In this document: piece by piece, positions 18,701 through 63,960 of the stretch
Position numbering within the stretch: the first letter of the stretch is position 1
Layout: every line of letters starts with the position of its first letter
IMG/VR virus record: IMGVR_UViG_3300035662_000018
Coordinates: 5,143 to 69,142 of that record
Origin: a virus
DNA length: 64,000 nt
Direction: 5' to 3' (one strand)
The notes under the pieces: generated by a model
What the model saw: the letters and a program-made list of their open reading frames with translations, nothing else
Database searches by the model: none
Told to the model about the DNA's origin: nothing
Translations under genes and position numbers: made by a program

Positions 18701-21700
18701 AACTTTCGCTCTGCTTCGAGCTGTGCGCTCTTATTAAATGCAATGTATACACCACGTTCTGTTGGACGCTCTTTCTTTTTGCGCTTTCCAGCTATCAAAA
18801 GAGTTGATGTCTTGCCAGTTCCAGCAAGCGCCTCAACAACAACGTCATTGCCAGAAAGAATTGCGTCAAGAATTGCACGCTGTTCTTCTGTTGGCATAAA
18901 CGGCTCGTCCTTGTACGGATCGTTCGTGTCAACGCCGTCGTACTTAGGATTATCAATTTCTTGAGTATCGGCCATTGATGTTGGCTTAGAGGTACTTCCA
19001 CCTTCAACGCCTTCTGGATCAATCTCACCGATTGGCAGTGGTGTTGCCTCACGGACCATCTTTTCAACATCAGGTACAGAGCAAGGTCCGTTTGCAGGTC
19101 CAACGGCTGCTGTCAGTCCAGAACCACCACAGTTCCAAGCGGCGGCAATTGCTTTAGCAGCAACATATTCAGCGAGGTCTGCTTCGTACTTGGCGTACTC
19201 ATTTTCGTAGTCAGCAAGTTCTTTTTGTTTAGCCTCAAACGCGCCATCAACATTAAGAAGTGTTGTTGGTGTCGTATCTGGATTTTCAATTGCGCGGTCG
19301 AGCATTGCATCGGTGATTTCCCACGACGCTTCAGCGTCTGCGTCCGCACGGTGCCAGTCTGGTAGTTGGACTTGAAGGAAGTCGGCAATTGGTCCAAGAC
19401 TATTTGATGCACGGCGCTTGCCATCTTTTTCACTTACCTGGCTTGCTCCAAACTTTGTCTTTGAGTTCCACTTAGGCAACGTGCCTTGGGCAAGATCTTT
19501 TGAGTCAATTGTTCCAACAATGTTCAGTGACAGCCCGTTTTCACTAAGAACTCGGTTAAGAATTTCAAGATCAAATGGCGTGTACTGCCCACCAAGAATT
19601 ACATCGCCACCGACGTTTTCGTTGACAAACGCGAGGAACTGCTCGTGCGCTTCCTTCATTGACGGTTGTGTTGCAAGCCATTCTTCTGTTACAGGCGAGC
19701 CGTCCATCTGCTTAAGATTCTTAGCTGACCAATCGGAAAGCTCATGCTCTGGATTCATGTATGAGCTAAACCGAGCATTGACCTTTCCATCCAAAGCAAC
19801 AATTGCGCCGATCTGCACCGGATTGTTCTTTCCGCCTTTTTCTGGACCAGGAAGACCTGTTGATTCGTAGTCAAAGAAGACAATCGGAGTTTTGCGGATA
19901 ATTGCTGCAGCCTCTTCCCATGTCTTAGCATCTTTGAGAAGCTCGGCCATCTTGCCGTTGAACGCGCCCGGTGAAGGCTTGCGCGGTGCCTTAGGACGGT
20001 GCAGTGCTGGCTTGTCGCCCTTAGGTGGAATTGTGCCACCACGAGCAGCAGGAATGATTGTTGTTTCATTCCACTCTTTACGCTGCGACTCGTGTCCTGG
20101 GAAGTAGCCTTGTACGCTGACCTTGTTTTTTGGAGTATCTCCATCGCGGAAGATACGCTCGATAACAAACGAGTCATCGCCAATCACATCGCCTGGTTGC
20201 AGATCCTGTGCTTCGTAGCCAATGCTATCTGTAAGTGGAATGCGCTCTGCGAACGGATCAACCGTTGTATCCTTAATTCCAAGCTGATCAAGAATGTTTG
20301 AACGGCGACGCTTGAGGACGTCCTTGAGCATTTCACGGTCTGTTGGATCTGAAATTACTGAGTCAACAATGTCGTCAATTTGACTTGGTGTGATGTTAAG
20401 AAGCTTGCGACCACTCTCGACAATCTGCTCTGGCGTCATTTTTCCGAATACTGAGCCAGCACTTTGGTTTATGTCCCTATCGCGCATCGAGTCAAGTTCA
20501 CCAACCTCTGGACCAAACCAGTCTTTTGGTTTACCCTGTGCGCGCCACTTCAACGCGCCACCTGGGTCAATTCGGTATGTGTTACCTTGTTCGTCAACAA
20601 CAATGTTGTCGTAGACAAGACCGATCACATCGTAGTTTGAAAGCCATGCGTCAATTGCAAAACCGTCATGAAGTTGCGATGTAATTGCTTCGTCAGATCG
20701 GCTACTTTGAAGAGTTTCAGTGCCAGGAATCATCGGTGTGACAATCCTGTCAGATCCAAATGAGCCAGCGGCTGGGTTGTATGTGCCTGGCTCGCTATCT
20801 TTCTGGTCGTCTCGTGTTGCAAGTCCAACTTCTGATGAAGGAATTTCAAAGTGACGATAGAAAGCTGAAGCAAGTGCTTCGTTTTCAGCGTGCGACTGAG
20901 ACTTTGCTCTCTTTACATAGAACTGACGACCGTTTTCGTCTTCGTAAACGCCGCCTTCGTTTGAACCGCTTTGTCCACCAACTTGTTTCCAGCCTGAGAT
21001 GTCGCCATAGTATGGAACTGTTGGTGATGCTTGTGCTGGTGCTGGTGCTACCTGCTCTGGAGCAACTTGCTCTGCAGGCTGCGCTTGTTCGGCGGGAGTA
21101 GCCCTACGCAAGACAACTTCGTAAACTCGTTCACGAATTGGCTCTACTCTTTCAATTGTAAACGTGCCGTATCCAAAGTATTCTTCTTCGCCAGGAAGCC
21201 ATGAGTAGTTTCGTGTTCGTACAGCATCAATTTCTCCAGGCGCAAACGAAAAGATGATTTTGGCTTGACCTTCCTTGGATGGAGTGCTGCCGTAGTCTGT
21301 TTCGTCTGCCACTTGATCAATTGAAGACATTGATCGTGGATCAATATCAATTGTGTTTCCAACTGTTGTTTGATCTGTAAAGTCTTTTGAATCTGTTTGA
21401 ACATAGATTCTTCTCTGCAGTTCAACATCATTTGGTATTGCAGACTCAGCGACAAGCCTGTACATTGCTGCGGTTGAAGTGTCTGCAGTAAGGTCGTCTA
21501 CTCCTTTTGAAATTCGCTGACGGCCTTCGGCAAAGTCTTTGTAATCTCCATACTTCTTAACGATTTCTTTGACAAACACCTCTCTTCCAGCGTCTTCAAA
21601 GGTATCGCCAGTGCGCCTAGCAATTTCCTCAACCATTCCTCGGTAAAAATCTGTAATGTCCCAATTGATCCCGCCTGCATCGTTTCCGTCGGCGGCCATC

Positions 21701-24700
21701 TGGAGACCCCAGAATGCTCGGAACGCCTCTTGCTTTTCTGGATCATCGCTTAGGGCCCAGTCAATGTACTTAGCGATTAGCTTAGCGCCTTGCTCTGGAC
21801 TTTCAGTCTCAATCGTGTCAACGTCTTCTGAGCTTTCAATTTCCCTAGCAAGTTTGATTATGAACGGATTTGTCTCGTTATGGTTTTTGACAAGTTTAAC
21901 TGCGTTAGCTGTGTAGTCTGGCGCGCCAAGCATTCCATTTATCTTAGCGGCGTTTGATGAAGTAATCTTTCCATACGGAGTATCTTCAACAACTTTTTGG
22001 ATATTTTTTGTGGCGTTGTTTGCAGCTGTTTTTTGTTCTGGAGTTTTCGCAAGTCGTGCATACGCTCCAGAAAGAAGAACGCCCTTGTCAAGTCCAGTAA
22101 GTTCAAGTGCTTCAAGAAGAGCCTCGACTGGAACGTCTTCCATTCCAGCATCAAACTTAAGACGCGCCATTCCATTGCGCTCGTCGGCGTTCATAAGCCC
22201 CTGCGTCATTGACATCGCAAGTTGCGCTGTGTTGAACTTCCTACTCAATACTGCTGGATCGTCAGTGTAGTCACTGCTTTCCTGAGTGGTTCGTCCCTTA
22301 GGACGATACACACCGAAGATGTTTGGCTTGTACGCACCGTCTGGAGCAGCAAACATTGAATCAAATGCCTCTTCATCAAATGCTGTAGCTTCGCCCTCGT
22401 CAGTGTCACCTTCAAATGTGCCATCGTCTTCTGGCCCAGTAAGCTCACCTGAAACATTTTCAGATCCATCGGCATCGCCGTTGTACCACTTAGCAAATTC
22501 TTCTTCGCTTCCTTCTGGAACTGAGAACTCAACTACTGGCCAGCCGCCTCCTTCGCCTTCTGGACTGACGATGTTTACGTCTCCGTCAGGGAATACTTCC
22601 TTAAAGCGACCAATGACCTCATCAAGAGTTTCATCTTCAGATGCGACATCAACTGTAAAGCTCGTACCTGCTTCTCCGTTTGGAAGCTCTGTGCTTTGTC
22701 CATCTGAAATGCCGTACTCATCTTCAAGTACTTGTGCTTGCTCTTGCTTTTGTGCACGAGACTCGTTGTAAGCCTTTCCAGCTTCATTCAAGCTGCCGTC
22801 TGCATCGTAGAACAAGTCAAGTTGACGCTCAAACGAAGGAGCTGTATCTGTAACTTCAGGACGTGCGTCTGGAAGAGGACGCATTGTGCGCGCTTCTTCA
22901 CCAAGGTAGTCTTCAATTGGGTTGCCGTCAATTGTTGGCATAACTGGAGCAGCGATCTTGCTTGCGAGCCAGTCGGCTTCTTGCTTTCCATTGAGCTTTT
23001 CAAATGCGCGGCCCTTAACAAACTTGCCAACTGCGCTGCCGATTGATTCGGCCTTTCCAATTGCATCAACGTCAGCCGGGTTGACATTTGGATAGAGGTA
23101 CGTTCCTCCACCCTTTCCATCGCGAGACTTAAACTTGATGAGCAATTCGCCAGTAGCTGGGTCAAACGACATCTCTTCAACTGATGAACTTGCTGATGTC
23201 TTGATCCTACGGAATGTTTGTTGACCTTCAGGTGCTGAAGGCTGCTGAGCTCCACCTGGCCATGCTGCATCAACAAGACGGTCAAGTTCGTCCTGCGGCA
23301 TATTGACGATGTCATCTACCTTGACATTTGTGTCAGGTGCAGGCTTATTTATCTTGTCAATGGTGAACGTGCGATCTTCACCGTCGGTCTTGCTGAAACC
23401 TTTAAGTTGCTTTTTGCCAGCTTTGTTTTCAATGATTTGCTCTGGTGTAACTACGCGCAGTTTGTCATTGAAGTCAAAAGCGACGTCTTTCTTTTCTTCG
23501 ATTGACTTCTCAATGATTGCTGGAAGATCTGCCGTAGGCGTGTTGCGCATGTCATTTGCTGCGTCAACAAGACGTTGGATCTCTGGTGAGATCTCTGGTG
23601 GTTCAGCAAACAGTGTTGGCTGACTCTCGTCTCGTAAAAGCTGGATCTTGGGTGGTTCCCCTGGAATCAGTCTCCCGTCAGGTCCAATCCTGAAATCCCC
23701 GTCGGGCAAATTCGTCCACTTGGGTGGTTCCCCTGGAATCAGTCTCCCGTCAGGTCCAATCCTGTACTCCTCGTCGGGCAAATTCGTCCAGGGCAAAGGC
23801 TCGCCAAGGCTCGGGTCAATAATCCGTTTTCCGTCAGGTCCAAGCTTGTAAATATCGTATGGCGGCTCGACCAGTTTCGGGTCAATAATCCGTTTTCCGT
23901 CAGGTCCAAGCTTGTAAATATCGTATGGCGGATCATAGATAGCTGATGTGTAGTCGGATCGCAGCTCTGGATACTCGTCAAAGTCTGGCATTGGACCGCT
24001 GTATCGCCATTCACCGCCTACTGGTGGAATGCCAAATGGTACAAATGTCCAATTGTCAGGGTCATCGAGCTGTTCTCGGAATCTTTCTCGCTGCCTCTTT
24101 AGTTTCTCTTGACGCCTTGCTTCTCTTTCAACACTGCGCTCATCTTTACCAAAGCGTTCGTCTAAGAAATCTTTAAACTTCTCGTCTTCAAAAAATGTAT
24201 CTTTAGGAGGCATTGACGTAATGCCTGGAGCTTCAGATGGCGCAACAATCTTGTCCCAAGCGAAGTTCTTGCTTGTTCCGTCAGAGTCTGTTGCCTTTAG
24301 GTTTGTACGACCTGTTTGACCATTTTGCCAAACACTTTTTGGAGTAACAACGCGATCTTTGCCGCTGTATGTGAAGCGAAGCTTTTGGTCGTTATCAATA
24401 GCGTCTTGAACAAACTTCTTGATGTCTGCAATCTTGTTGACTTCTTTTGGATTGAGATCAATTACGTCTCTTATAGCAGCCGGTGCCTGGACTGGTGCAG
24501 GTGCTACATCTGAAGGCGTCATCTTATCTACAATGAACGTGCGATCTTCGCCGTCTGTTTGACTAAATCCAACTACGTTTGTAGTTCCTGTCTTAGGATT
24601 TTTGTAGATGCGCTCTGGCGTAAATACACGGTTCTTTCCACTGTACTTAAAGCTGATTGGATACTGACCGTCAATTGCCTTCTGCACATCGGCAACAACA

Positions 24701-27700
24701 TCTTGTAGATTTGTTGACGTGATTGGTTGAGGTTCTTTACCTGAAACTGCTTCAACATTGCGTGGAGCTTCAGTGACCTTTGCCTTTTCAGGTATTGGCG
24801 CTTCCATCTTTGAAACGTTGTAAGTACGCTCTTCTCCAAGGGCGTGATCAAACGTCACGATGTTTGTTTCACCGTTCTTTTTGTTTACATATATGTTGCC
24901 TGGCTGAACCTGTCGGTTTTTGCCGTTGTAGCTAAAGTTGATGAGGTTTCCTTCTCCACGAGCTTTCTTGATGGAGTTTTTCTTTTCCTCTAACGTTGAA
25001 CCTGCAAGATCGGACACACCGCCAGATGGATCTGCGTAGCGGCGGTACTTCTGCATTCTGTTGCCGCTTCGCACAGCTCCAGTCTCGCGGAAACCGTCTT
25101 TTGTTGCGTCGTACACAGCGTCTTCGCTGAACCAGTACGTGCTGTCGCCGTCTGTCATCTCGTATTGTGTAGGACCAGTTACGAGTTTTTCGTGTGTGAT
25201 GCCTTCAACGGCCTTCTTCATTGCTTCTACGTCAAACGGAGCCCTTGCTCCAGTAGGCGCTTCAGGCTCTTCTGGCGTAACTTCTTCCTTAGGCATATTC
25301 TTTTCGCGAATTGCCTGTGCATTTGGCATGTCAGCTTTAACAGCCTCGGCTGCCTTGGCAAGTGTGTCAGTTGTTGCGACACGCTTGTTGTCACCTTCAC
25401 CGATAAATATGCCTTTACGCCATACATCAAACTTGCTGTTTCCGTCGCTGTCAATGCTCTCAGTAATGCTGTGGTCTGAACCGTACTCGTCTGCTGGTGG
25501 AATGTGCGTCCACTCGTTTGGCTCTCCAAATTTTGTACCAGCGACTCGGGTTTCCCAGCCTTCAGGCGCAGTGCCTGGCTCTGTAGTCGCTGGCATAGGA
25601 GTGACTGGTCGCTCGAGTTCTTTTGTGGGTGCGCTGATTGCTTTCTTAGTTGCTGGTGTTTCAACTGTCACTGGCGCAGTTGGCTTGCCATCAGATTCCA
25701 TCTTTGCAGAATCCATGATGTAGTCAGTGGCGTTGTAGTCGCCGTCGGTTGCTTTGTCAATTGCGTTACGGAGGTTGTCCTCTGTGCCCGACATCTTGAC
25801 AGTGCCGTCGTCCATAAGCTTGGCTGTAACGCCTGGAGCAAACTCTTGTGTCCAAGCATCGAGGCCTTCTTGATCTACTGGGCCGTCTTCTGTTTGCCAG
25901 TTGAGGCGAACAGATTGTGTTGGTGCGGCAACACCGCCTGGCTCACGGCGAGGTTCATCTGGAGATGCAGGTGCTAGTGCTTTTCCAGGTGGAGTTGTTG
26001 GCGGCTTTCCAGGTCCAGAAGCTGATGGAACAACTGCGGTTCCTCGCTTGTTTTTTGCAAAAGAAACGTCTGATGTTTCTGATTTAACTACCTTTGCGTC
26101 TGTCCTAGGGTTGCCGTCAAGGTCGTCGTAAAACTCTGCAGTGCCGTCTTTTTTATAGATGTCTGAGACAGCGTCTCCACCATGAATTGCTGCAATCTTT
26201 CCATCTGACTCTTTTATCTCAAGAAGCTTCATTCCTGGCGTTGGATCAGCTTTATAGACGCCACTTTCAAGTTTGTCATCTACACTTGATGATTCATCGC
26301 CCATCTTTTCATGAGGACTTAGTCGTGGAATAAAGACACCGCGATCAAAGAACCATGGATCGTCTTTTGTTTTTACACCGCTGACAGTTGATTCTCTGTC
26401 GCCAAGCCAACCGTCTCCACCACGGCCCCATCTCGCAATGCGACCGTCCTCGTGACGAAGGTACACTGAACCTGGATCTAATGCAGTTCCGCGAGCACCA
26501 CTAGTTCCAGGCGTACGTGTTCTAAAGACAGTGTCAATCTTTCCAGACTCAAGCGCTTCGCGCACTGACTCTGGCATATCTTTTTCAATGTCTGGAGCGA
26601 TTGCGCGTGCAACCTCAAACATGTCACGTGATTTTTCTGGGCTAAGCTTAAATGCAGATACAGTTGTAGCTTTTTCATCTGCTAAACGCTTGTTCTCTGC
26701 ATCAACTAGTTTTTGAACAGAGTCAGGAACTACTGCAGGTGGGCGGTCGCCTGGAGCTTTCTTATCAAATGCTGACTTAAACTTATCTTCACCGATGTCT
26801 TCTTGAACAACATCAACACCCCAGCCACCCTTGCTGAGTGCCTTCTGACCTTCAGGAGAATTTAAGTACGTTTGATAGCTGTCCTGGTCCATAAGCGCCG
26901 CGCTCTCTGCACGGTCCCAGCCATCAATGTTATTGGCAATCATCTGGTTTCCAACTGCACGGCGCAGTGTTCCACGATTTACACCAGAAAAATCTGCCTC
27001 GCCTTTATCATTTGCAGGGACATCAAGACGGTAGCCGTCAGCTGTTGTAAACGAAACCATCTTTGGATCGCTACTTTGAACTTTCTTCCAAGCTGAAGGA
27101 GAGTCCATGCGCTTAAGCGCATTTGAGTCAATTGAATACTTTCGTTGCTCAGGATCAACTTCAACGTCGCGGTCGGGCAGACCTTTTAGCGCACTCTTTT
27201 TAAGAGTGGCTTTTGCTGCAATACCGCGGGAAGCAGGAACTGCGTACACTCCGTTTGGTACATATTTGTTGTCACGAACTTCAACTTCAACGTCGTCAAC
27301 ACCTGACTGACCGACAACCTTTCCAGTTACTCCCCGATGTGAACCATCTGGAAAGCGAACACTGAAGTTCCAGCTTCCACCTTGAAATGCAAATCGTCCT
27401 TTACGGTCACGGCGCTGCAAACGTGCGCGAGCAGAACGCGCAGCACGTGAGTTGCCGCCAAGGCCAAGGCCGAGTACAGCGATGATTGGTTCAAGATCAA
27501 CAGCAGCTGTGATTGGAACAAGACCTGGTCCCATAGCAGCAAGACGTGCAAATGCATGCCTGCGTTCAATCGAGCCTGGTTCAAGTGAGTGTGCTGAAGC
27601 TACAAGAGCACGAGCAGCTTCGCTGTTAATGTGCGTGTCTGCAGCAATCCATTGTGCACGAGCGTGGCGAAGTGCGGCCTCGTCCATCTTGTGAAACTTT

Positions 27701-28005
27701 GTTGAAAGCGGGTGACCGATAGAAAGAAGATCAGAGTTTTGCAGTGATGCGGTCGTAATTTTGTTTCTTGAGGCAAGTGAAACGAACGCAGAGACTGCAC
27801 GCAGTGCTCCATAGATACGAGCGTCTGCAGATCCAGTCGTGTTCTTACGAATTTCGCGCTCTGCTACTGTAAGTGCAGCACCGAACGAAACTTGTCGCTC
27901 TGGAAGAATGTTCTCGTTGGATTTTTCAACGAGACTCTGTACCTTATAGTAAAGACTGAGTTGCTGGATCTTACTAAGTTCTCTGCGCTTTTTTTCGTTT
28001 GACAT
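9730..28005 (-). CDS. Giant multi-domain (polyvalent) protein, 6091 aa
   Basis: Uninterrupted 18.3-kb ORF. Motifs: WYL-like x4, KTSC, ART-like, kinase-like (YVK..ENE..D.WL.N.D..N..RID.GG), DEDDh (FFDYESTG..FDL..HRADAD), SF1 helicase (AGTGKT, DEAQD, VGD.NQAIY.FRG, T.HQAKGLEWD, YVAVTRAK), two NUDIX boxes, VIP2-type ART (LYRA..FSSTS..ELEFVL). Confidence 0.9.
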   Translation of the reverse strand: MSNEKKRRELSKIQQLSLYYKVQSLVEKSNENILPERQVSFGAALTVAEREIRKNTTGSADARIYGALRAVSAFVSLASRNKITTASLQNSDLLSIGHPLSTKFHKMDEAALRHARAQWIAADTHINSEAARALVASAHSLEPGSIERRHAFARLAAMGPGLVPITAAVDLEPIIAVLGLGLGGNSRAARSARARLQRRDRKGRFAFQGGSWNFSVRFPDGSHRGVTGKVVGQSGVDDVEVEVRDNKYVPNGVYAVPASRGIAAKATLKKSALKGLPDRDVEVDPEQRKYSIDSNALKRMDSPSAWKKVQSSDPKMVSFTTADGYRLDVPANDKGEADFSGVNRGTLRRAVGNQMIANNIDGWDRAESAALMDQDSYQTYLNSPEGQKALSKGGWGVDVVQEDIGEDKFKSAFDKKAPGDRPPAVVPDSVQKLVDAENKRLADEKATTVSAFKLSPEKSRDMFEVARAIAPDIEKDMPESVREALESGKIDTVFRTRTPGTSGARGTALDPGSVYLRHEDGRIARWGRGGDGWLGDRESTVSGVKTKDDPWFFDRGVFIPRLSPHEKMGDESSSVDDKLESGVYKADPTPGMKLLEIKESDGKIAAIHGGDAVSDIYKKDGTAEFYDDLDGNPRTDAKVVKSETSDVSFAKNKRGTAVVPSASGPGKPPTTPPGKALAPASPDEPRREPGGVAAPTQSVRLNWQTEDGPVDQEGLDAWTQEFAPGVTAKLMDDGTVKMSGTEDNLRNAIDKATDGDYNATDYIMDSAKMESDGKPTAPVTVETPATKKAISAPTKELERPVTPMPATTEPGTAPEGWETRVAGTKFGEPNEWTHIPPADEYGSDHSITESIDSDGNSKFDVWRKGIFIGEGDNKRVATTDTLAKAAEAVKADMPNAQAIREKNMPKEEVTPEEPEAPTGARAPFDVEAMKKAVEGITHEKLVTGPTQYEMTDGDSTYWFSEDAVYDATKDGFRETGAVRSGNRMQKYRRYADPSGGVSDLAGSTLEEKKNSIKKARGEGNLINFSYNGKNRQVQPGNIYVNKKNGETNIVTFDHALGEERTYNVSKMEAPIPEKAKVTEAPRNVEAVSGKEPQPITSTNLQDVVADVQKAIDGQYPISFKYSGKNRVFTPERIYKNPKTGTTNVVGFSQTDGEDRTFIVDKMTPSDVAPAPVQAPAAIRDVIDLNPKEVNKIADIKKFVQDAIDNDQKLRFTYSGKDRVVTPKSVWQNGQTGRTNLKATDSDGTSKNFAWDKIVAPSEAPGITSMPPKDTFFEDEKFKDFLDERFGKDERSVEREARRQEKLKRQRERFREQLDDPDNWTFVPFGIPPVGGEWRYSGPMPDFDEYPELRSDYTSAIYDPPYDIYKLGPDGKRIIDPKLVEPPYDIYKLGPDGKRIIDPSLGEPLPWTNLPDEEYRIGPDGRLIPGEPPKWTNLPDGDFRIGPDGRLIPGEPPKIQLLRDESQPTLFAEPPEISPEIQRLVDAANDMRNTPTADLPAIIEKSIEEKKDVAFDFNDKLRVVTPEQIIENKAGKKQLKGFSKTDGEDRTFTIDKINKPAPDTNVKVDDIVNMPQDELDRLVDAAWPGGAQQPSAPEGQQTFRRIKTSASSSVEEMSFDPATGELLIKFKSRDGKGGGTYLYPNVNPADVDAIGKAESIGSAVGKFVKGRAFEKLNGKQEADWLASKIAAPVMPTIDGNPIEDYLGEEARTMRPLPDARPEVTDTAPSFERQLDLFYDADGSLNEAGKAYNESRAQKQEQAQVLEDEYGISDGQSTELPNGEAGTSFTVDVASEDETLDEVIGRFKEVFPDGDVNIVSPEGEGGGWPVVEFSVPEGSEEEFAKWYNGDADGSENVSGELTGPEDDGTFEGDTDEGEATAFDEEAFDSMFAAPDGAYKPNIFGVYRPKGRTTQESSDYTDDPAVLSRKFNTAQLAMSMTQGLMNADERNGMARLKFDAGMEDVPVEALLEALELTGLDKGVLLSGAYARLAKTPEQKTAANNATKNIQKVVEDTPYGKITSSNAAKINGMLGAPDYTANAVKLVKNHNETNPFIIKLAREIESSEDVDTIETESPEQGAKLIAKYIDWALSDDPEKQEAFRAFWGLQMAADGNDAGGINWDITDFYRGMVEEIARRTGDTFEDAGREVFVKEIVKKYGDYKDFAEGRQRISKGVDDLTADTSTAAMYRLVAESAIPNDVELQRRIYVQTDSKDFTDQTTVGNTIDIDPRSMSSIDQVADETDYGSTPSKEGQAKIIFSFAPGEIDAVRTRNYSWLPGEEEYFGYGTFTIERVEPIRERVYEVVLRRATPAEQAQPAEQVAPEQVAPAPAQASPTVPYYGDISGWKQVGGQSGSNEGGVYEDENGRQFYVKRAKSQSHAENEALASAFYRHFEIPSSEVGLATRDDQKDSEPGTYNPAAGSFGSDRIVTPMIPGTETLQSSRSDEAITSQLHDGFAIDAWLSNYDVIGLVYDNIVVDEQGNTYRIDPGGALKWRAQGKPKDWFGPEVGELDSMRDRDINQSAGSVFGKMTPEQIVESGRKLLNITPSQIDDIVDSVISDPTDREMLKDVLKRRRSNILDQLGIKDTTVDPFAERIPLTDSIGYEAQDLQPGDVIGDDSFVIERIFRDGDTPKNKVSVQGYFPGHESQRKEWNETTIIPAARGGTIPPKGDKPALHRPKAPRKPSPGAFNGKMAELLKDAKTWEEAAAIIRKTPIVFFDYESTGLPGPEKGGKNNPVQIGAIVALDGKVNARFSSYMNPEHELSDWSAKNLKQMDGSPVTEEWLATQPSMKEAHEQFLAFVNENVGGDVILGGQYTPFDLEILNRVLSENGLSLNIVGTIDSKDLAQGTLPKWNSKTKFGASQVSEKDGKRRASNSLGPIADFLQVQLPDWHRADADAEASWEITDAMLDRAIENPDTTPTTLLNVDGAFEAKQKELADYENEYAKYEADLAEYVAAKAIAAAWNCGGSGLTAAVGPANGPCSVPDVEKMVREATPLPIGEIDPEGVEGGSTSKPTSMADTQEIDNPKYDGVDTNDPYKDEPFMPTEEQRAILDAILSGNDVVVEALAGTGKTSTLLIAGKRKKKERPTERGVYIAFNKSAQLEAERKFAEAGLTNIEVVTNDAIAYRWASDEVKKKMQRLKKSNPLAYYKKFAEAFGITEFQGNNDETVSLFEATKFFKEVVNKFMISADDEIGEQHFIAAGWSGDVPNWMMATANNIWSDYQDPNGNAKINNTVVTKMWALSKPDLSKIGSGTKFANNFIFFDEAQDINPVSGKVIGEQPLQVVYVGDNNQAIYAFRGGENQLEKVDRAVQRLPLTKSFRFGENIAKEANKWLQLLGTDLRVIGAGSDPGTVVPTGSMLDTTNAILVRTNGGGFAAIADQLGRGRVVGVTKNYRGDLVSLTDTAEYLITGQNKPSQLHEDLAPFKSWSEVQKAIADELIDSKKLQIFADMVDAEGIPAIREMIDKLKLVKGSGEIRDMSEDDTQADVGDTAPGATGELGKGITYAVSGSYVSLSGNTYGNKDAIKETKRFKYNGVTKTWDAPFTSEADTFDLLNDLSTALGLKKAEPTEVDSGAIDVMITTVHQAKGLEWDYATMWNDFWGPRVDKVTGEVIMPEPTELKIAYVAVTRAKKMVDLGPLNWIDSFVKPEVPAAEEEEVSAPTPEPTTEGEGGGGVEEPPAPTPTPAEGGDNNEQIIKSVKQAVSDAEDILDDYADRSAKDEKNIKKFREAVKDALYAYSGELYVDTEEKFREAAEFLEPYSEVGAGDLQSLMLQAADAADAIRISKTAPKAAEPTAPEAAPAKALDPEWRPDDVAAPQGAMPTGVAEAPDDVLPDADAPKTAQQSAEEKNKAFRSDANKAADLQQKFDEFDEAVELVTGEDTSLMASDRKRVREAAAQVAEIRKALGEGTMSEQEALAQLNAILDKFPHKPADSATSIDNNFFRDMLEGIVEVLTGQYYWRPTGKSLPPLDAVDPSGRPVGYSRDGKTFITPGMRVRDKWGYSGTVEGYNEKDWINVYIRYDIDPRDPASVKKGNWGPGVARKSMNPSTLTVLNPEDDTDPWIDLPTTPASKKLPQDIVDKQKKDWAKLKAARDYEAAARQAELNGEPVPPMPAGLALMKPSADLVRESKKTKANISSYFDDSYDDQDIDDATNEFSLSKESKIVASDAVIITSDDNGTPMVLMISRLHGPFKGAHALPGGFRDAGESFGAAADREMMEEVGISSDQATSRTFLGEVDANDWDPRAYKGAYVGAVAYEVPRDTPLAAGDDATGARWITIPDIIKGTTPIAFGHATWLAEAFKGTKYEAPLRALVLASKERNARLINQINAIREQKGFPTFDVPTLEVWTPIYPEGGEQSGGDLPKADAPSGAPVSEAPTSKWNDYTISKGDDGVYYAENISSSDVQLLRNGTLTPPNLPFFAPLGGGNDQETGEGYYFASDGKRYWGRFGAEGALVRRKNKDGNYEYFLAKRSSNLSSGGGKWGFPGGAHTNKKMADTPTATAKEEFMEEVGGDISGLSPVFIHSGKPSPDWSYETVVFEVGPGELGDLSPKDGENSEVGWFTADEIMKMGSDGKLHSAFQDSAAVIFSEVEEKQNDNADDEEADAKKEAAIRSAEKSQKKLSTHKRLVEEYKSQGEPAKGFLGAIDVYQDESASVNITASQMVSPDPKDQERAADGFEDEFQLAEYVGIITDITDAINKVDPLSEDTLLYRAVKGYGGVGRAINELNVGDEFVNEGFSSTSLDKDKAMFILNIADENKGLLKMVAPAGTRGIYIDAAKDEKDELEFVLQRGTKFRVVGKGNEKHEYLGNVPVTFVEIVGQDPKPMNLLELGIPNIEPDITSKPEVVPAENKEQGSNETWTLTNISSELPRVIPGIVVTAAQTVVPVDEKGNVQSSYMFKYAGRPIVMIGINGVKVPFYMSTGAGGKKNVDAGKWYPIFGISPVNGWFNKGLTEQAISEYHNSPELRAVAEWLNGQFPDALKRKDLVEVDSEGQGNLEYLFEQVNESMPGTVTGYGGGQEQHQKNIDSVVKQIKTITESSVEVEAKDMYANMDEALRGFDPAFDLFAKSLEDNSSPDDDETRQAGAMFESAKSALTNTLAFYELNNKKESEEYEMLRDFEGDMRRFDDLDYTAFDRVRQLIASYRGILQRSASEDWRSDMAERDKKFIDETARQLFDAIQFYSSRSADVFVDGFNKGKQERLEKSGISPSGRPKVEKSPEKFPLTRSYVDGVPSLSEIVEYAVAKREDDGLLGKSALVDSTDIEDLDVHASTIITPDGERKLRLRFKLTPWAMLAQETKLQDAKALKTSDAGKWSEATPLLKRTQLTDTGDIVVDEEGRGFGRGTEWVYDAEDNNAKASITITSAQKIKGTAQIANSTYDDAPAAFHGQVVIDLPIDATLDDISEAMKTAGVNDVTSASSDDIDIVIENKLLSLFSNENDPANNVSSQALRASMLQKIKEDYGVTVDNVNLVPGKHGRINYVLPEGVAEQIASETGTEVFMHMVSIHHIIKKVNTKYGSEGSGFVKPAGSYFGNPFSGPEKPIIDEVAKTVVNLVTKGLISTVNRFNEGLPYSGMSENQDMATGGADYIYLSPHGYKFNEGHSLIKYDNDVKIWIDPKNVYSRTDLYANRNDKYGQRIIGANSISNSAPGGYETMLKHGIDVIAPGNIVELPPQFYGRVMEMLDDMGISEINGTPIADVIVNSGALKEKGQTKNTKSVEPEVTSAVESVGGNVNALTLGEVQALLLMSGAAHTYGYLPKDSKVIAAGWDAAGTVKKSDRSDVALNNGLTLPRLYVLHPNGAMYALEPEILAQSSGGATVSFMDSDWTNDVLGVITDDSKVHSILPFSGRVSVKDYNEYEEMDPEWLSFSGTAITVAGQKEAGLPVNNKSQNTFESYTKYIESILKATRAGKDNDEKVAMYSGQFSRLFSLFMSDIGDVVDSNGRSLRSVISENLLMIRNKILSLSPDKPLISAGNKRKDSRKLSKVDYDEFMVYKNYISLDDMGKAVIETIDGDTEGVIRPVYYVGVEPTVDENMNVVQTYVMVETDREGVGQYLLDKGTSLVVDPETNEMKFSSNGTQYMIRAPRPSDKKLAQERA
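23648..23931. repeat. Two intragenic tandem duplications (72-bp and 66-bp period)
   Basis: ttgggtggttcccctggaatcagtctcccgtcaggtccaatcctg at 23648 and 23720, and tcgggtcaataatccgttttccgtcaggtccaagcttgtaaatatcgtatggcgg twice. They encode RIGPDGRLIPGEPPK x2 and PPYDIYKLGPDGKRIIDP x2. Confidence 0.9.
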
Positions 28006-45027: not shown

Positions 45028-45332
45028 GAGATCATTATACATTCCTGAGTTTACTGCGCCTCGATGTCCTGGCGCAGTACCCGCAACTTCATTGCGAAGA
45101 TGAGGACATCGTCATCTTCTTTCAGCTGGTCGGTCGCTTTCTCAAGCTCGAGCGCAAACTCATCGCGGAAGATGAGTTCATACTCAAGACAGTAATTGGC
45201 CTCGTAGATCGCGTTGAACGTGTCATGGAGGTCAAGTTGGCCTTCGATGCGCTCGATGACATCGAGCTTGGTCTCTTTCGTGTTCATGGGATTCCTTTCG
45301 CCGTGGTGTGATCTCATCTTACTTTCCAGAGT

Positions 45333-45452
45333 TTACCACCCTGTCCTTGCGTACCAGTAGTGGTAGTGGCGGGCGCTCTTGATCCCGCGTCGGATTCCGG
45401 CTTTCTTGGTCCAGAAGATTCCGATCTGCACTGCACCGATGAATCGTTTCAT
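45333..45452 (-). CDS. 39-aa cationic peptide (GIRxG family)
   Basis: MKRFIGAVQIGIFWTKKAGIRRGIKSARHYHYWYARTGW with its own promoter and RBS. Confidence 0.7.
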   Translation of the reverse strand: MKRFIGAVQIGIFWTKKAGIRRGIKSARHYHYWYARTGW

Positions 45453-45500
45453 TTTGGGTCCTTTCGTCGTGGTGTACGAGATCATTATACATTCCTCAGA

Positions 45501-45727
45501 ACGCTGAGGACGCCACAGCGGAGGTAGCTAACCTCACCGCAAGTTCCCCGTCGGGCGTTGCGAACTTGAACCGTATGTAAGAGGAGGGCGGATGTCGTGA
45601 GAGGAGGACGGATACCGTGGTCCCGGGAACCGCGTAGAGCCTTATCTTCTGAACAGAGCCTTATCATTCAGTGACGTCTCGTTCGCAACCTTGCGGCTGC
45701 TATGATGTCCTCAACGTGCTGAGGCAT
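45501..45727 (-). ncRNA. Putative structured ncRNA, copy A
   Basis: Array promoter at 45734-45751 with no RBS. 19-bp terminal stem (45501-45519 with 45699-45717). Motif order is shared with 48396-48618. Confidence 0.7.
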
Positions 45728-45752
45728 GTACTCATTTTACTTTCCGGAGTTT

Positions 45753-45845
45753 CTACCACTTATGGAAGTTAGTGGCGGTGCGGAATCCGTGACGGATTCC
45801 ATACGCACGGGAGCATGCGATGAACATTCTCAGTCTCAGAATCAT
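45753..45845 (-). CDS. 30-aa cationic peptide (GIRxG family)
   Basis: MILRLRMFIACSRAYGIRHGFRTATNFHKW with its own promoter and RBS. Confidence 0.6.
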   Translation of the reverse strand: MILRLRMFIACSRAYGIRHGFRTATNFHKW

Positions 45846-45894
45846 TACTGGTCCTTTCGTCGTGGTGATGAGTTAATTATACTTTCCGGAGTTT

Positions 45895-46014
45895 CTACCA
45901 CCGGGTCCTTGGAGCCCAGTAGTAGAAGTGGCGGCCCGTTTTGACGCCGGCGCGGATGCCGTTGGTACGTGCCACCCCAATCCCAATCTTGATTGCGCGG
46001 ATGATTGCTTTCAT
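45895..46014 (-). CDS. 39-aa cationic peptide (GIRxG family)
   Basis: MKAIIRAIKIGIGVARTNGIRAGVKTGRHFYYWAPRTRW with its own promoter and RBS. Confidence 0.7.
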   Translation of the reverse strand: MKAIIRAIKIGIGVARTNGIRAGVKTGRHFYYWAPRTRW

Positions 46015-46074
46015 TTCGTGTCCCTTCGTCGTGGTGATGAGTAAATTATACTTTCCCGAGATTACGTGCCGCCC

Positions 46075-46233
46075 TTATCGGGCGGCCACGCGGACCTCGA
46101 GATCCTGCCGGACTTGGGGAGCCTGCGCCACCCAGAACTTGTTGCAGTTTTCACGTGAACCTGAGAACCTGATCAACTTGAACTTGCGATCATAAACCTC
46201 GTGGGCTCGGGTTGATGGCTTGGTCGTTTTCAT
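46075..46233 (-). CDS. 52-aa basic protein, paralog of 40331-40480
   Basis: MKTTKPSTRAHEVYDRKFKLIRFSGSRENCNKFWVAQAPQVRQDLEVRVAAR. Confidence 0.7.
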   Translation of the reverse strand: MKTTKPSTRAHEVYDRKFKLIRFSGSRENCNKFWVAQAPQVRQDLEVRVAAR

Positions 46234-46451
46234 CTTTCGTCCTTTCGTCGTAGGTATGAGATCATTATACTTTCCTGAGTTTTAGTTGGATTGCTCCCAC
46301 AGGTGAAGATCGGCGTTCTCTGGCGCTGGACAGGGTACGTCGTAATCCATCCAATCTTGATACGTGAATCCGCATTTACAGGTTTGATCTGAATCCATAT
46401 TCAGTCCTTTCGTCGTTTGAACTTGTGAGATCATTATACTTTCCTGAGTTT

Positions 46452-46658
46452 TTACATCCCCATCTTCTCGTACCACTCACTCAGGATCTTGACCTTTTCT
46501 TCCACCTCGTTCAAGATCATTCCGATCTCTTCGTTCGTGAATTTTCCTTCTTGAACCAGTTCACGAACTAACTCGCCGTAAACTTGATTCACGTCAAGAT
46601 CTGATCCTTCCATGATCTCGCAGATCTCGCTCGCTTTATCGTCTATTCTTTCGTCCAT
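46452..46658 (-). CDS. Small acidic helical protein, paralog of 42749-42973
   Basis: MDERIDDKASEICE...VYGELVRELVQEGKFTNEEIGMIL. Confidence 0.8.
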   Translation of the reverse strand: MDERIDDKASEICEIMEGSDLDVNQVYGELVRELVQEGKFTNEEIGMILNEVEEKVKILSEWYEKMGM

Positions 46659-48150
46659 TATTTTCCCTTCGTCGTGGTTACGAGATCATTATACGATCCC
46701 GAGTTTTAGTACTGGGTGGATAACTCAGACGCCGCCCAGTGCGACGAGGTTAGAGCAGTGTTATCCAACTGCGATGATCATTATAAGTTCCCGAGTTCAG
46801 TCAGCTAGTCGCATGGCCGCTTCCATTGCGTCTTCGTGGTCAGCGCCGCAGTCTACCGCCGCTTCATACTGGGCCTGCCGCCTAGGCGTTAGGGCCTCAA
46901 ACTCAAGGCGGGCCTTTCGGACCTTCGGGTTACTTGCCTCTCCAAATGCTGTGATCGTCGTCATGCCACTACTTTACATTCCTGAGTTCAGCGACGGCGC
47001 GTGTCAGCCGGCGACCATTCCGGCCGATCACGCGTCTCGCTTGCGTGCTAGCGCGCACGACGAAGAACGCGCTAGCAACTGCCCGTCAACAGTTCTTGGG
47101 CCTATGGCAGGCCGGGCCGCTCGAAAGCGTGCCCGTCATGCCTTTGCGGCCCTATGGCAGGCCGGGACTTATTCCCAGTCGCCATCATCATCGTCATACG
47201 ACGGCTCGGCGTAGTAGTCCGCATAGCGGTCTTCCTGCGCCTTGATGATGCTTGCCTCTTCGTTCCAGTGAGCATAGTCACTGATGCTTGGGTTGGTCAT
47301 TGCTTGGTCCCTTCGTTGTTCGTTGATGAGATCATTATAGGATCCTGAGATCCCGTCAGCCGAAGCCTTACGACTGGGACCCGTAGGCCCAGCCGTAAGT
47401 TGCTTTGTAGAAGTCTTCCATCCAGGCCAGTGCGCCCTTCTTGGTGTTCTTCGGGCACCCGTATTCCTGTGCCACTCTGATCAATGAGACCCCCCGTACA
47501 TATTTCATGCCCGTTTTGATCTCGAGGCGTAGCCCGCCGATCAGTAGGCACATTCGGTAGTGCTCGATGCCTTCCTGCGTGTCAATTGCCATTATTGTCA
47601 TTGCTTGTCCTTTCGTCGTAGGTTGATGAGATTATTTTACAATCCTGAGAATTAGCAGACCCAGTTGACCGCAATTACTGATGACTTGAAGTCATAGTCA
47701 TGACTAATTTTAGCCGAGACCATGTTCCAAAAGTCTTCTGCTTGGACTTCAGGTCCATCAACAATTTCAATCTCGGGACCAAACCAACCCGCAAAAGCTG
47801 CAGCTGGCTCGAAGTCAAATCCGACAATTTTTCCGTACTTTACTCGAGCGACAAAGCTTCCAGGAATATCTACTCGTGTCATTTCATCTTGGTCCATTGT
47901 TGTCCTTTCGTCGTTGGTGAGTACATTATACGTTCCCTAGATCGAGATCCAGAGAACGTAGCCAGAGTCATTGGTCTTGTTGTGGTGTGCGCATGCTTCC
48001 ACCATCTCACGAGCGCGCTCGAGCGTGAGGCCAGTTCGGTAGACTTCGCTACCACCCGCATCGCCGATCATGACCGTGTATGTCTGTTCCTGTGTGGCTT
48101 TCATGTGATGTCCCTTCGTCGTTGTTGAGCTCATTGTACAGTCCTGAGTT

Positions 48151-48345
48151 TTACACTTCGGCTGGGCGAACCTCAAGAATCTGTGAGTCCAGTCCCCAAA
48201 AGCCACTACCGACTTCTGTGGTCATTACAAAGCCTGGCTGACAGCCGTGGCCGACAATTGCATGCTTTGCTGTTATGACACCTATCTTAACTCGTGTGCT
48301 TCCAAATGGTGAGTACACGACCGTGTCCCCTACTTTATAGTCCAT
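48151..48345 (-). CDS. Small SH3/KOW-like beta protein, paralog of 43687-43872
   Basis: MDYKVGDTVVY...QPGFVMT...WGLDSQI. Confidence 0.75.
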   Translation of the reverse strand: MDYKVGDTVVYSPFGSTRVKIGVITAKHAIVGHGCQPGFVMTTEVGSGFWGLDSQILEVRPAEV

Positions 48346-48395
48346 GCGTTTTGTCCCTTCGTCGTTGGTGTGAGATCATTATATGTTCCTCAGTT

Positions 48396-48618
48396 CGCCG
48401 GGAAGCAACATAGCTGGAGGAGCTACCTCCCTACCCTTCGCCCGTCGGCGGCCTTGAACGATACAACGTGTGCGAGAAGTGGACGGATAACTAAGAGGAG
48501 GACGGATGGTCAATCCCGGGATTGATCAGAGCCTTATCGTTATGCAGAGCCTTAACTTGCAGGGACGGGTCGTTCGCAACCAGGTAGTTGCTATGTTGTT
48601 TCCCGGCGTACCGGGTAT
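48396..48618 (-). ncRNA. Putative structured ncRNA, copy B
   Basis: Array promoter at 48625-48642 with no RBS or ATG. 18/19-bp terminal stem (48396-48414 with 48590-48608). Same internal motifs as copy A. Confidence 0.7.
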
Positions 48619-49304
48619 GCTATCATTCTACATTCCGTAGTTTGATGAGCGCCCTGGAACTTTTACCCTGGGCCAGGGCCTTCCATAATCGGAAGGTGTG
48701 GGTCGTTCCAACCCGCGAGACTATTTTACTTTCCTGAGATTCAGGTAGATCATTGTGAGAACCGCAAGGCTCGCTCCAATTATCATGAAGCTTACGCTAT
48801 CAATGAACTCTCCTGAGATAACAATGTCTTGAGCTGCTAACACTTTGTGTCCTTTCGTCGTGATGAGATCATTATACATTCCTGAGTTTGCTACTCCCAG
48901 GTTATCCACCCTTCAGGTGTCACGTAGGTTGGAAGGCCCATCTCCTTCAGGTCTTCCCAAGTGTAGCTGCCGCCTGACACTTTGTTGATGTGATTCACGT
49001 AGCCAATGTTGGCGAGTGCTTCGTCTGTCATTGCTGTCCTTTCATCGTGGTCGGTTGTACGAGACCATTATAAGTTCCGGAGTTTGCGCTTCAACTCAGG
49101 AGAGACTTCATCTGTGATGAATGTCCCGATCTCGACAACAGTGTCGCTTTCGCCTGCGCGCTCGCGATCCGCAAGCCAGTCGGTGGCTGCTTGCTTGAGA
49201 GCAACCACGAGGCTGTAGTGCTCCGCATTGAACGTGACTTCAACTGTCTGTAGTTTCATGTGTGTCCTTCCGTCGTGTGTTGAATCATTTTACGTTCCCG
49301 AGAA

Positions 49305-49530
49305 CAGAGACTTAGCGAGATGGTTCAGACGCCCCTTTCGGGATTGAGCCTTAGGCAGTCCGTGTGGCCACACGCCACCTCGCATATCTCCGTTCCTCAC
49401 AGGTGGGAGGACGAGTGTCGGCCTAGTGGTCGCCATGCCACTTTGGTTAGTAAAGCCCCCTGCAGGAGGAATACCGCTCACTCATGACCCGTCCGCGCTG
49501 TGCGGCTAGGCTTGCCCTCGCCACCTGTGC
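49305..49530 (-). ncRNA. Putative structured ncRNA (two-domain)
   Basis: Array promoter at 49537-49554 without an RBS leader. Nested stems CACAGGUGG/CCACCUGUG, GCCUAG/CUAGGC, AACGGAGA/UCUCUGUU, GCGAGGUGG/CCAUCUCGC. Confidence 0.55.
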
Positions 49531-49552
49531 GAGATCATTTTACATTCCCGAG

Positions 49553-63888: not shown

Positions 63889-63960
63889 AGCCTAGAGTCA
63901 GGATTGAACTGACGACCTACCGCTTACAAGGCGGTTGCTCTACCACTGAGCTATCCAGGC
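63889..63960 (-). tRNA. tRNA-Thr(UGU)
   Basis: GCCTGGA acceptor arm, TAGCTCAGTGGTAGAGC D-arm, ACCGC-cttgtaa-GCGGT anticodon arm, GTCAG-TTCAATC-CTGAC T-arm. CCA not encoded. Confidence 0.95.

Follow-up and report, generated by a model that had tools for sequence, protein, structure and literature searches.

The DNA considered here is a stretch of 64,000 nucleotides (nt), hereafter the window, which spans bases 5143-69142 of the 69-kb virus record IMGVR_UViG_3300035662_000018 of the IMG/VR database (CheckV completeness 41%), and the subject of this work is a pair of related units within it, termed A and B, that are read here as two genes for a structured non-coding RNA (ncRNA). Both lie between ~40 and 54 kb of the window, in a region where all genes are on the minus strand and nearly each small gene of the array is provided with a promoter element of its own, whose core, GATCATTATAC with at most two mismatches, was found at 45 sites in the window against 10.2 expected, a count that none of 100 shuffles reached. 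The large terminase of the phage is of the T4 type; it shares 89% identity with its counterpart in Actinomycetia phage DSL-LC01, which was assembled from a lake metagenome, and ~61% with the terminases of Microbacterium phages whose genomes measure 186-195 kb. By this similarity the host is probably a freshwater actinobacterium, with Microbacteriaceae as the likely host group; the stretch was also present in 19 lake-water DNA runs, from which it may stem.

The positions that had been given for the two units in the original prediction, which was made from the sequence of the window alone, were borne out, the bounds of a covariance model being a few bases wider (Table 1), and all the motifs that it had listed were recovered in both copies and in the same order, namely a 5' mini-hairpin, a long terminal stem, GGUUGCGAACGA, two copies of UAAGGCUCU, the UCCCGGGA hairpin, two copies of AUCCGYCC, GUUCAAG, CCGACGGG and a GAGG-UAGCU-CCUC hairpin. 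The long terminal stem, P1, is a near-perfect duplex of 25 base pairs (bp). The two copies are ~71% identical (blastn E 5e-15), are the sole two in the 69-kb record and, as had been claimed, have no open reading frame (ORF) in common, the ORF of 60 amino acids (aa) in A and that of 44 aa in B being in different registers; their alignment contains indels of 1 and 2 nt. A cassette promoter likewise precedes each unit, its -10 box lying 6-10 nt before the unit start, and the next promoter follows directly after the unit. The sequence TAAGGCTC occurs seven times in the window against 1.26 expected, and five of these occurrences are within ORF-less cassettes. Fold energies of the single sequences were equivocal, with z scores of -4.68 for the minus and -1.83 for the plus strand of A and of -2.70 and -3.64 for the corresponding strands of B, so that the strands of copy B were not told apart. 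The case for structure and strand rests on homologs, because two copies alone would not settle either.

With UAAGGCUCU designated motif 1 (copies 1a and 1b) and CCGYCC motif 2 (copies 2a and 2b), an exact-pattern scan of IMG/VR for two UAAGGCUCU separated by 5-30 nt returned 105 stretches, a stricter three-block pattern returned 2 and a motif-2 pattern 8. A covariance model, R1, was built from A, B and the retrieved loci L009 and L101, and it matches 16 of 109 viral loci. The double UAAGGCUCU was also found in 87 stretches of Joint Genome Institute (JGI) metagenomes, 80 of which were fetched and about 30 of which match R1 at E<1e-9. Pooled, the matches at this threshold number 41 and correspond to 35 distinct sequences from 38 sources among the 204 loci scanned, with weaker or truncated matches besides in L137, L076/L198, L230, L017, L171, L194 and L211. 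Records carry one or two copies of the RNA, and members of the family range in length from 195 to 285 nt. The query asked neither for the pair of CCGYCC motifs nor for a closing stem, side hairpins or a palindromic apex, yet these are present in the retrieved members. A scan that required one motif 1 and two motif 2 yielded 8 true members, all with both copies of motif 1 exact; another locus from that scan, L233, was discarded as a chance hit.

Two subtypes can be distinguished among these sequences. Type 1, to which A and B belong, closes with ..ACAUAGCA../..GYUGUGU.. and carries the hairpins P5 (CCGACGG) and P6 (GAGGUnnGCnnCCUC), some of its members having a longer central domain with additional conserved GCGA(A/U)AG and CUCCCUCC, and type 2 is more G+C-rich, closes with GCCUCUCUCUC / GGGAGUGGGGCGAGAGGC and is without P6. 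GUUCAAG and GGUUGCGAACGA are not family-wide, being the two strands of a local helix, P3, in close relatives only. Two divergent paralogs ~2.4 kb apart on one contig (L230, 1501-1781; L076, 1154-1437) both contain GCAAGCCUCU, which replaces the first UAAGGCUCU in L230 and stands between the two UAAGGCUCU copies in L076.

None of the 4227 models of Rfam 15 matched either unit, in agreement with the earlier statement that the family was not recognised. When the whole window was searched at the gathering threshold the sole Rfam match was a transfer RNA at 63889-63960; the region 45300-48800, searched with E up to 10, gave four weak chance hits, none inside A or B, the nearest being anti-hemB at 48652-48731 on the plus strand, just beyond B; and ten loci with diverse homologs, searched with E up to 1, gave no hits. 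Among 50,697 records of GenBank phages no match to A, B, a type-2 member or a long-centre member was found by blastn in its distant mode, and R1 detected nothing in the full records of DSL-LC01, Pumpernickel and GMA2 and just a 14-bit chance hit in A3Wally. The double-motif scan of 185,579 bacterial species genomes returned 14 stretches, none of which belongs to the family (R1 scores of at most 14.9 bits); all 14 were rejected as tandem repeats, mostly within coding sequence. Literature searches with the motif strings returned only primers and unrelated hits, and no description of the family was found. A catalogue of 10,006 structured RNA candidates from IMG/VR has been published (Fremin, Bhatt, Kyrpides 2023; PMC10690425), which resembles the present work in its source and in its covariation evidence; the family is not described in the main text of that paper, which does not contain the words 'dimer', 'promoter', 'actinobacter' or 'actinomycet'. 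In short, the A/B family was not found in Rfam 15, GenBank phages or the literature searched, and it may be an unnamed model of PMC10690425, listed as such in the supplement.

Covariation was evaluated in 17 sequences of type 1 (P1, P2, P5 and P6; alignment A6) and 11 sequences of type 2. In these sets 93.5% and 96.7% of cells, respectively, are paired, and when the partner strand is slid the figures fall to 40-47% and 45-57%. Pairs changed on both sides amount to 30 of 37 in type 1 (including 18 of the 23 pairs of helix 1 of alignment A6, which is P1) and 29 of 55 in type 2. Counted by cell, such changes number 154 against 46 in shuffles for type 1 and 89 against 32 for type 2, none of 500 shuffles being as high in either set; the sequences are related, so these shuffle counts are not probabilities, and the slid controls keep the relatedness and still collapse. 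The earlier claim of a structured ncRNA of an unrecognised family, with compensatory stems on the minus strand, therefore holds on 35 distinct homologs. As for the strand itself, G-U cells are far more frequent than A-C cells (59 versus 20 in type 1, 83 versus 4 in type 2), which indicates that the minus strand is the RNA strand, and the R1 score of the opposite strand is ~10-fold lower. Most homologs have a -10-like box 6-10 nt upstream, despite different promoter types among the phages, and in several type-2 members a U-tract stands right after P1. Because covariation, G-U bias, strand scores, upstream boxes and U-tracts combine in this manner, an RNA read from the minus strand of the window is, as judged from sequence, the only comfortable reading.

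The repeated loop motifs had originally been regarded as conserved single-stranded sites. They are real and contain conserved unpaired bases; what did not stand is their independence, since UAAGGCUCU pairs with CCGYCC. A table of the flanking bases shows that motifs 1 and 2 are the two strands of one module, in a nested arrangement of 1a with 2b and 1b with 2a. This module can be written as 5'-x3 x2 x1 UAA GGC UCU-3' over 5'-CC G-Y-C C z1 z2 z3-3', with the consensus 5'-RGA UAA GGC UCU-3' / 5'-CC GYC C UCY-3', in which UAA is opposite a single C, GGC pairs with GYC (G-C, G-U or G-C, C-G) and x1-x3 pair with z1-z3 (RGA with UCY). The same asymmetric internal loop is thereby present twice, as M1 and M2, stacked within a rod. 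In copy B, AGU is opposite ACU, and in L082 CGC is opposite GCC (GA>GC, UC>GC), changes that are compensatory in the nested arrangement only; the U/A difference that had been seen in AUCCGYCC(U/A)C is real and can now be refined as the compensating partner of GA>GU at the first UAAGGC of copy B. Across 17 distinct motif combinations the nested arrangement forms 85 of 102 flanking pairs, as against 75 of 102 for the swapped one. In type 2 the x3:z3 pair of 1a:2b is A-U in 6 of 11 sequences and G-C in the remaining 5, all paired, and that of 1b:2a is A-U in 8 and G-C in 2, with one unpaired. In each of the five type-2 variants the 3-bp helix that separates the modules shows covariation (CGG:CCG, GAC:GUC, CAC:GUG, UGC:GCA), and the helix outside M1 covaries too. 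The predicted order of the rod is accordingly P1, P2, P3, M1, P4 (the 3-bp helix), M2 and the apical hairpin, with P5 and P6 as side hairpins on the 3' side. An internal duplex of UAAGG with CCUCC, of the Shine-Dalgarno/anti-Shine-Dalgarno type, was rejected, as no more than 3 pairs were counted when it was read by hand.

The central hairpin bears a Watson-Crick palindrome, 6 nt long or longer, at its tip in 29 of 29 distinct central regions, three of them confirmed by eye where the script had reported a longer palindrome elsewhere. Eight different hexamers occupy the apex (CCCGGG, CCGCGG, CCUAGG, UCUAGA, GCUAGC, ACUAGU, CUGCAG and CCAUGG), all four base combinations occurring at positions 1/6 and at positions 3/4, and control hairpins of the same RNAs have no apex palindrome in any of 38 cases (0/14, 0/9 and 0/15). 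The central UCCCGGGA hairpin noted earlier is thus present and can be understood as one case of a family-wide self-complementary apex. In some members the 6-mer alone is symmetric, within an asymmetric loop, and in L055, L136, L146 and L204 the hexamer is in an open loop of 8-14 nt, the classic kissing-loop layout; the central palindrome extends to 16 nt in B and to a perfect 18 nt in L174, and the whole central hairpin is palindromic in A and B. Since the innermost bases of the hexamer cannot pair within one hairpin, yet substitutions in it stay paired, pairing between two molecules is suggested. The apex is self-complementary with paired substitutions, as in the self-dimerising class of RNA, and on this pattern of substitution the RNA probably works as a dimer. 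The extended duplex is predicted at -28.5 kcal/mol for A and -30.3 kcal/mol for B, compared with -7.3 and -4.8 kcal/mol per monomer hairpin, a difference expected of any palindrome. Natural RNA homodimers that form through palindromic pairing or kissing loops are documented (PMC12990946). Paralogs of one phage usually differ in their hexamer (CCCGGG versus CUGCAG, CCGCGG versus ACUAGU, UCUAGA versus GCUAGC), which hints at dimers that are deliberately kept from mixing; in A and B the hexamer is CCCGGG in both, and A-B heterodimers are possible.

Table 1. Features of the two RNA units and their promoters, in window coordinates.
Feature	Position	Strand	Basis or remark
ncRNA copy A (type 1), ~237 nt	45492..45728	-	cmsearch 252.3 bits on minus versus 26.3 on plus; begins just past its own promoter and reaches the margin of the promoter that follows
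ncRNA copy B (type 1), ~234 nt	48386..48619	-	cmsearch 205.9 bits on minus versus 15.7 on plus
-10 box TAAAAT, promoter of copy A	45734..45739	-	variant of the element found 45 times; homologs have a -10-like box 6-10 nt upstream
-10 box TAGAAT, promoter of copy B	48625..48630	-	read from sequence
Copy A, P1 5' strand (long closing stem)	45697..45724	-	minimum free energy (MFE) fold; outer part alternatively a local 5' mini-hairpin CCUCA/UGAGG
Copy A, P1 3' strand	45494..45520	-	ends in CUGAGG, in overlap with the upstream element of the promoter that follows
Copy A, motif 1a UAAGGCUCU	45655..45663	-	sequence and flank table
Copy A, motif 1b UAAGGCUCU	45636..45644	-	sequence and flank table
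Copy A, central hairpin apex, palindrome UCCCGGGA	45621..45628	-	
Copy A, motif 2a CCGUCCUC, proposed partner of 1b	45604..45611	-	
Copy A, motif 2b CCGCCCUC, proposed partner of 1a	45584..45591	-	
Copy A, P5 hairpin CCCGACGGG	45547..45555	-	alignment A6 helix 3: 3/3 pairs changed on both sides
Copy A, P6 hairpin GAGGUUAGCUACCUC	45521..45535	-	alignment A6 helix 4: 4/5 pairs changed on both sides
Copy B, motif 1a UAAGGCUCU	48546..48554	-	GU before the motif, not GA
Copy B, motif 1b	48528..48536	-	
Copy B, central hairpin, perfect 16-nt palindrome UCAAUCCCGGGAUUGA	48510..48525	-	
Copy B, motif 2a CCGUCCUC	48498..48505	-	
Copy B, motif 2b CCGUCCAC	48479..48486	-	AC for UC, compensating GU at motif 1a
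Copy B, P5 hairpin GCCGACGGGC	48440..48449	-	
Copy B, P6 hairpin GGAGGUAGCUCCUCC	48416..48430	-	

With regard to expression, one metatranscriptome run contains 13% of the words of the stretch, and its contigs, which are 90-99% alike and come from a related phage, extend over 28 of the 30 bins and over parts of A and B among them, a result that speaks neither for nor against a discrete RNA. In the flanks of L037, L180, L062 and L087 the RNA stands behind another repeated element, of the CCCCUACUACC-AUAGAUU or the CUUACAAGGCA type, and the ATG of the next gene is only a few bases past that element, which suggests a different, possibly leaderless, cassette promoter system that carries the same RNA.

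The account that is tentatively favoured is that A and B are paralogous, stand-alone ncRNA genes of ~235 nt whose product dimerises and serves as a decoy or scaffold for a conserved partner. Each would be transcribed from its own early-cassette promoter on the minus strand, to judge from the sequence around it, and the transcript would fold into the rod with M1 and M2 to which covariation points. Two molecules might then pair via the apical loop, as a kissing complex or an extended duplex, and such a dimer would display four modules. In what is the weakest step of the scheme, the modules would act as binding sites of high affinity for a partner that is conserved, most likely a protein or ribonucleoprotein (RNP) shared by the actinobacterial hosts, and an abundant early RNA could in this way serve as a multivalent decoy or scaffold that withdraws this partner, or directs it elsewhere, during takeover. 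A binding platform fits best because a near-invariant module is doubled per molecule in otherwise diverged RNAs that are encoded among early genes, and a host factor is the likelier partner because no conserved phage protein was found next to the RNA; a sponge or decoy, which was among the roles first suggested, is our best guess. A bolder version, which must be regarded as doubtful, would make the family a new class of host-takeover RNA, in which a compact rod, dimerised through a freely evolving palindrome, captures with its four modules some universal host machine, for instance the ribosome, RNA polymerase or an RNA-decay enzyme, and phages with two paralogs keep their dimers from mixing by means of different palindromes.

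Several observations weigh against the favoured account. In the lowest-energy folds of A and B the palindrome is mostly buried in a stem with a loop of 3-4 nt, and dimerisation of these two copies would therefore need an extended duplex. The invariance of motif 1 is partly circular, as the retrieval scans demanded exact copies, and the paralog L230 has GCAAGCCUCU at the place of motif 1a. As for the module, the third flanking pair is formed in just 17 of 34 cases over the 17 combinations of both types, and in type 1 it is often absent. A competing local hairpin round motif 1a can be drawn and is the one that RNAalifold picks in type 2; it was set aside, as its 5' arm pairs better with the 3' flank (CCGU:ACGG, GUCU:AGAC) and its 3' arm finds a partner in the 2a-2b linker in five of five type-2 variants, the hairpin itself being good in three, and it is a possible alternative fold. 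No terminator was found after A or B. In the contigs of the only RNA-library run that contains related sequence, which carry no strand information and may include DNA carry-over, the units are covered no more than their neighbours. Finally, there is no universal neighbour among the 1303 same-strand ORFs, within 3.5 kb of 48 loci, that were clustered.

Among the alternatives, the one that survives best, although it is unlikely, is that the RNA acts without any protein partner, as a small counterpart of ROOL, GOLLD and OLE, either by an RNA-only assembly through the palindromic loop and the UAA bulges, the latter making A-minor contacts, or as a ribozyme or a binder of a ligand or ion in which the two sites are equivalent. 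The self-complementary apex of all 29 distinct sequences would serve such an assembly, as would two identical internal loops with near-invariant unpaired bases; the many 3-4-bp helices of the rod would need tertiary support, no conserved protein-gene neighbour was found in the ORF clustering, and natural homo-oligomeric RNAs are known (PMC12286853, PMC12990946). The ~235 nt of the family are, however, far below the size of the RNA-only assemblies known so far, neither a cleavage site nor an expression platform can be made out, and the present data do not separate this possibility from a protein-binding or decoy role.

A base-pairing regulator, in which the C/U-rich strand CCGUCCUCCUC would pair with the purine-rich ribosome-binding sites of host or phage messenger RNAs (mRNAs) or mimic the tail of 16S ribosomal RNA, is improbable. 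C-rich seed regions are a theme of Gram-positive small RNAs, and CCUCC can be read at motifs 2a and 2b of A and at one of the two in B; the conserved core, however, is CCGYCC, and the CCUCC bases vary (UCC, UCU, UCG, ACU, GCC) and covary with the partner strand. The complements of the two motifs are moreover not enriched on the mRNA strand of the window, where plus-strand TAAGGCTC occurs twice and CCGYCCTC three times, the numbers expected for both strands together being 1.26 and 2.58, and the phage's own leader GAAAGGAC offers, by reading, 5 contiguous pairs at most with the motif. The anti-Shine-Dalgarno idea of the original prediction is weakened by the variable, covarying CCUCC part and by this lack of enrichment, and its suggestion of antitoxin mimicry is left without support, as there are neither tandem repeats of 34-36 nt nor a toxin gene as conserved neighbour.

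There is also little likelihood that the units are cis elements of a longer transcript, such as a leader or a processing site in which the 25-bp P1 would be cut by an enzyme of the RNase III type, as between the early genes of T7. Both the length of this near-perfect duplex and its extension into the next promoter would suit a processing site, as would the missing terminators after A and B. Against this, the next gene has its own promoter directly past the unit, downstream genes vary among homologs with none in common to all, several type-2 members end in a U-tract, and a conserved interior of ~150 nt would be superfluous for a cutting site. An action as DNA, whether as a strand-specific single-stranded DNA (ssDNA) fold in replication or priming, a protein-bound palindromic operator or a small mobile inverted-repeat element, is very improbable: the long inverted repeats at the ends and the perfect palindrome at the centre, of 16 nt in B and of 18 nt in L174, would be consistent with it, and G-T wobble in ssDNA could give a strand bias too, but the -10 box is at a fixed short upstream distance across promoter types and U-tracts follow P1 in type 2, a palindrome that changes freely among eight hexamers suits base pairing over recognition by a DNA-binding protein, some members are symmetric in the 6-mer only, inside an asymmetric loop, the terminal repeats differ between A and B in one genome with no target duplication seen, and many 3-bp helices covary.

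Some neighbouring genes recur around the RNA. The commonest neighbour is a protein of 47-69 aa (MKTTKPSTRAHEV...RQDLEVRVAAR) encoded at 14 loci, including window 46075-46233 (minus), all of them type 1 or L076-like and at a variable distance from the RNA; it has no Pfam or PHROG match. A protein of ~100 aa (..RERVKGDTYATW..ARPEGWS..) is encoded downstream of the RNA at 10 loci, among which both subtypes are represented, and in several of them its gene follows the RNA immediately (sites include L037 573-875 and L136 8146-8451); it has no Pfam or PHROG match and no convincing family. Copy A is flanked by three genes for small cationic, aromatic-rich peptides (GIRxG...W) at 45337-45456, 45750-45838 and 45900-46014 (minus), the first of which has no Pfam or PHROG match. 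Relatives of these peptides are confined to the 7 loci closest to the window, and they are therefore no general partner of the RNA across its family.

A third cassette that lacks an ORF and is driven by a promoter is located at 49300-49532 (minus); it folds into two domains, with an MFE of -104.3 kcal/mol (z -3.58), and contains a CCC-GAAA-GGG hairpin together with one CCUAAGGCUCA and CUCGUCCUCCC. Model R1 gave no match to it, and it had no relative in an exact 26-nt scan of IMG/VR. The stretches 46690-46790, 46975-47165 and 48640-48725 (minus) are short, bounded by promoters and without an obvious ORF, contain inverted repeats and may be additional small RNA cassettes. Elsewhere in the window, an ORF of 6091 aa occupies 9730-28005 (minus) in the structural-gene region.

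Phage ncRNAs are few and poorly understood, the more so in the large phages that infect freshwater actinobacteria, where hardly any has been explained. In this regard, the family described here is well supported, with strong covariation, a simple repeated module and evidence for dimerisation built into the sequences themselves. If the module does bind a host factor, it would represent a new way for phages to seize the cell, and if instead the RNA self-assembles alone, it would be a small, tractable addition to the natural RNA oligomers that have come to be recognised of late. A cultured system is so far lacking, because no relative was detected among the GenBank phages by blastn or in the four nearest named phages with R1.

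Known regulatory RNAs resemble the family in part. CsrB and RsmZ are abundant ncRNAs that titrate a host protein by means of a repeated short motif, and 6S RNA does so by means of a rod-like fold, with a large central bubble that mimics an open promoter. The motif of the family differs from that of CsrB/RsmZ in being a two-stranded internal loop that occurs twice only, and not a GGA hairpin loop; with the RNA polymerase-binding 6S and Ms1-type RNAs it has the rod in common, with two small identical loops in place of one large bubble, and there is no Rfam match to either group. Type III antitoxin RNAs and RNA anti-CRISPRs consist of tandem repeats of ~34-36 nt that match the substrate of the toxin or Cas protein, with the cognate gene nearby, whereas the family has just two repeats, motifs of 9 nt at a spacing of 17-20 nt, and neither a toxin gene nor a Cas gene was a conserved neighbour among the clustered ORFs of the 48 loci.

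The oligomeric RNAs of phages and bacteria offer a further comparison. The pRNA of phi29 is a phage RNA of ~120-170 nt that is transcribed from an early promoter and functions solely in oligomeric form, the subunits being joined by loop-loop pairs; two different loops, the right and the left hand, pair into a ring, and its gene is beside phi29-like packaging genes. The likeness lies in a phage-encoded structured RNA with an early promoter and, as proposed here, a loop-loop oligomer. The differences are that the family does not match RF00044, has one self-complementary loop and is encoded in an array of small early genes, with no link to packaging, in a large actinophage whose terminase is of the T4 type and which is not a phi29-like podovirus. 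GOLLD and ROOL are often found in phages or prophages. Like the present family, ROOL, GOLLD and OLE are orphan, highly structured RNAs; they differ from it in length, with 550-830 nt compared with ~235 nt, and in architecture, the family being a rod with twin modules, and there is no Rfam match between them. The human immunodeficiency virus HIV-1 dimerises its RNA through kissing loops at the dimerisation initiation site (DIS), which has a 6-nt self-complementary apical sequence. Homo-oligomers are formed by ROOL, GOLLD and OLE according to PMC12286853, and PMC12990946 names the multimeric assemblies of pRNA and lists HYER1, OLE and ARRPOF as palindromic RNA homodimers. DIS, HYER1, OLE and ARRPOF are unrelated to the family, for which dimerisation is deduced from covariation in the loop; what they have in common with it is a 6-nt self-complementary hairpin apex, which in some of its members stands within a loop of 9-14 nt.

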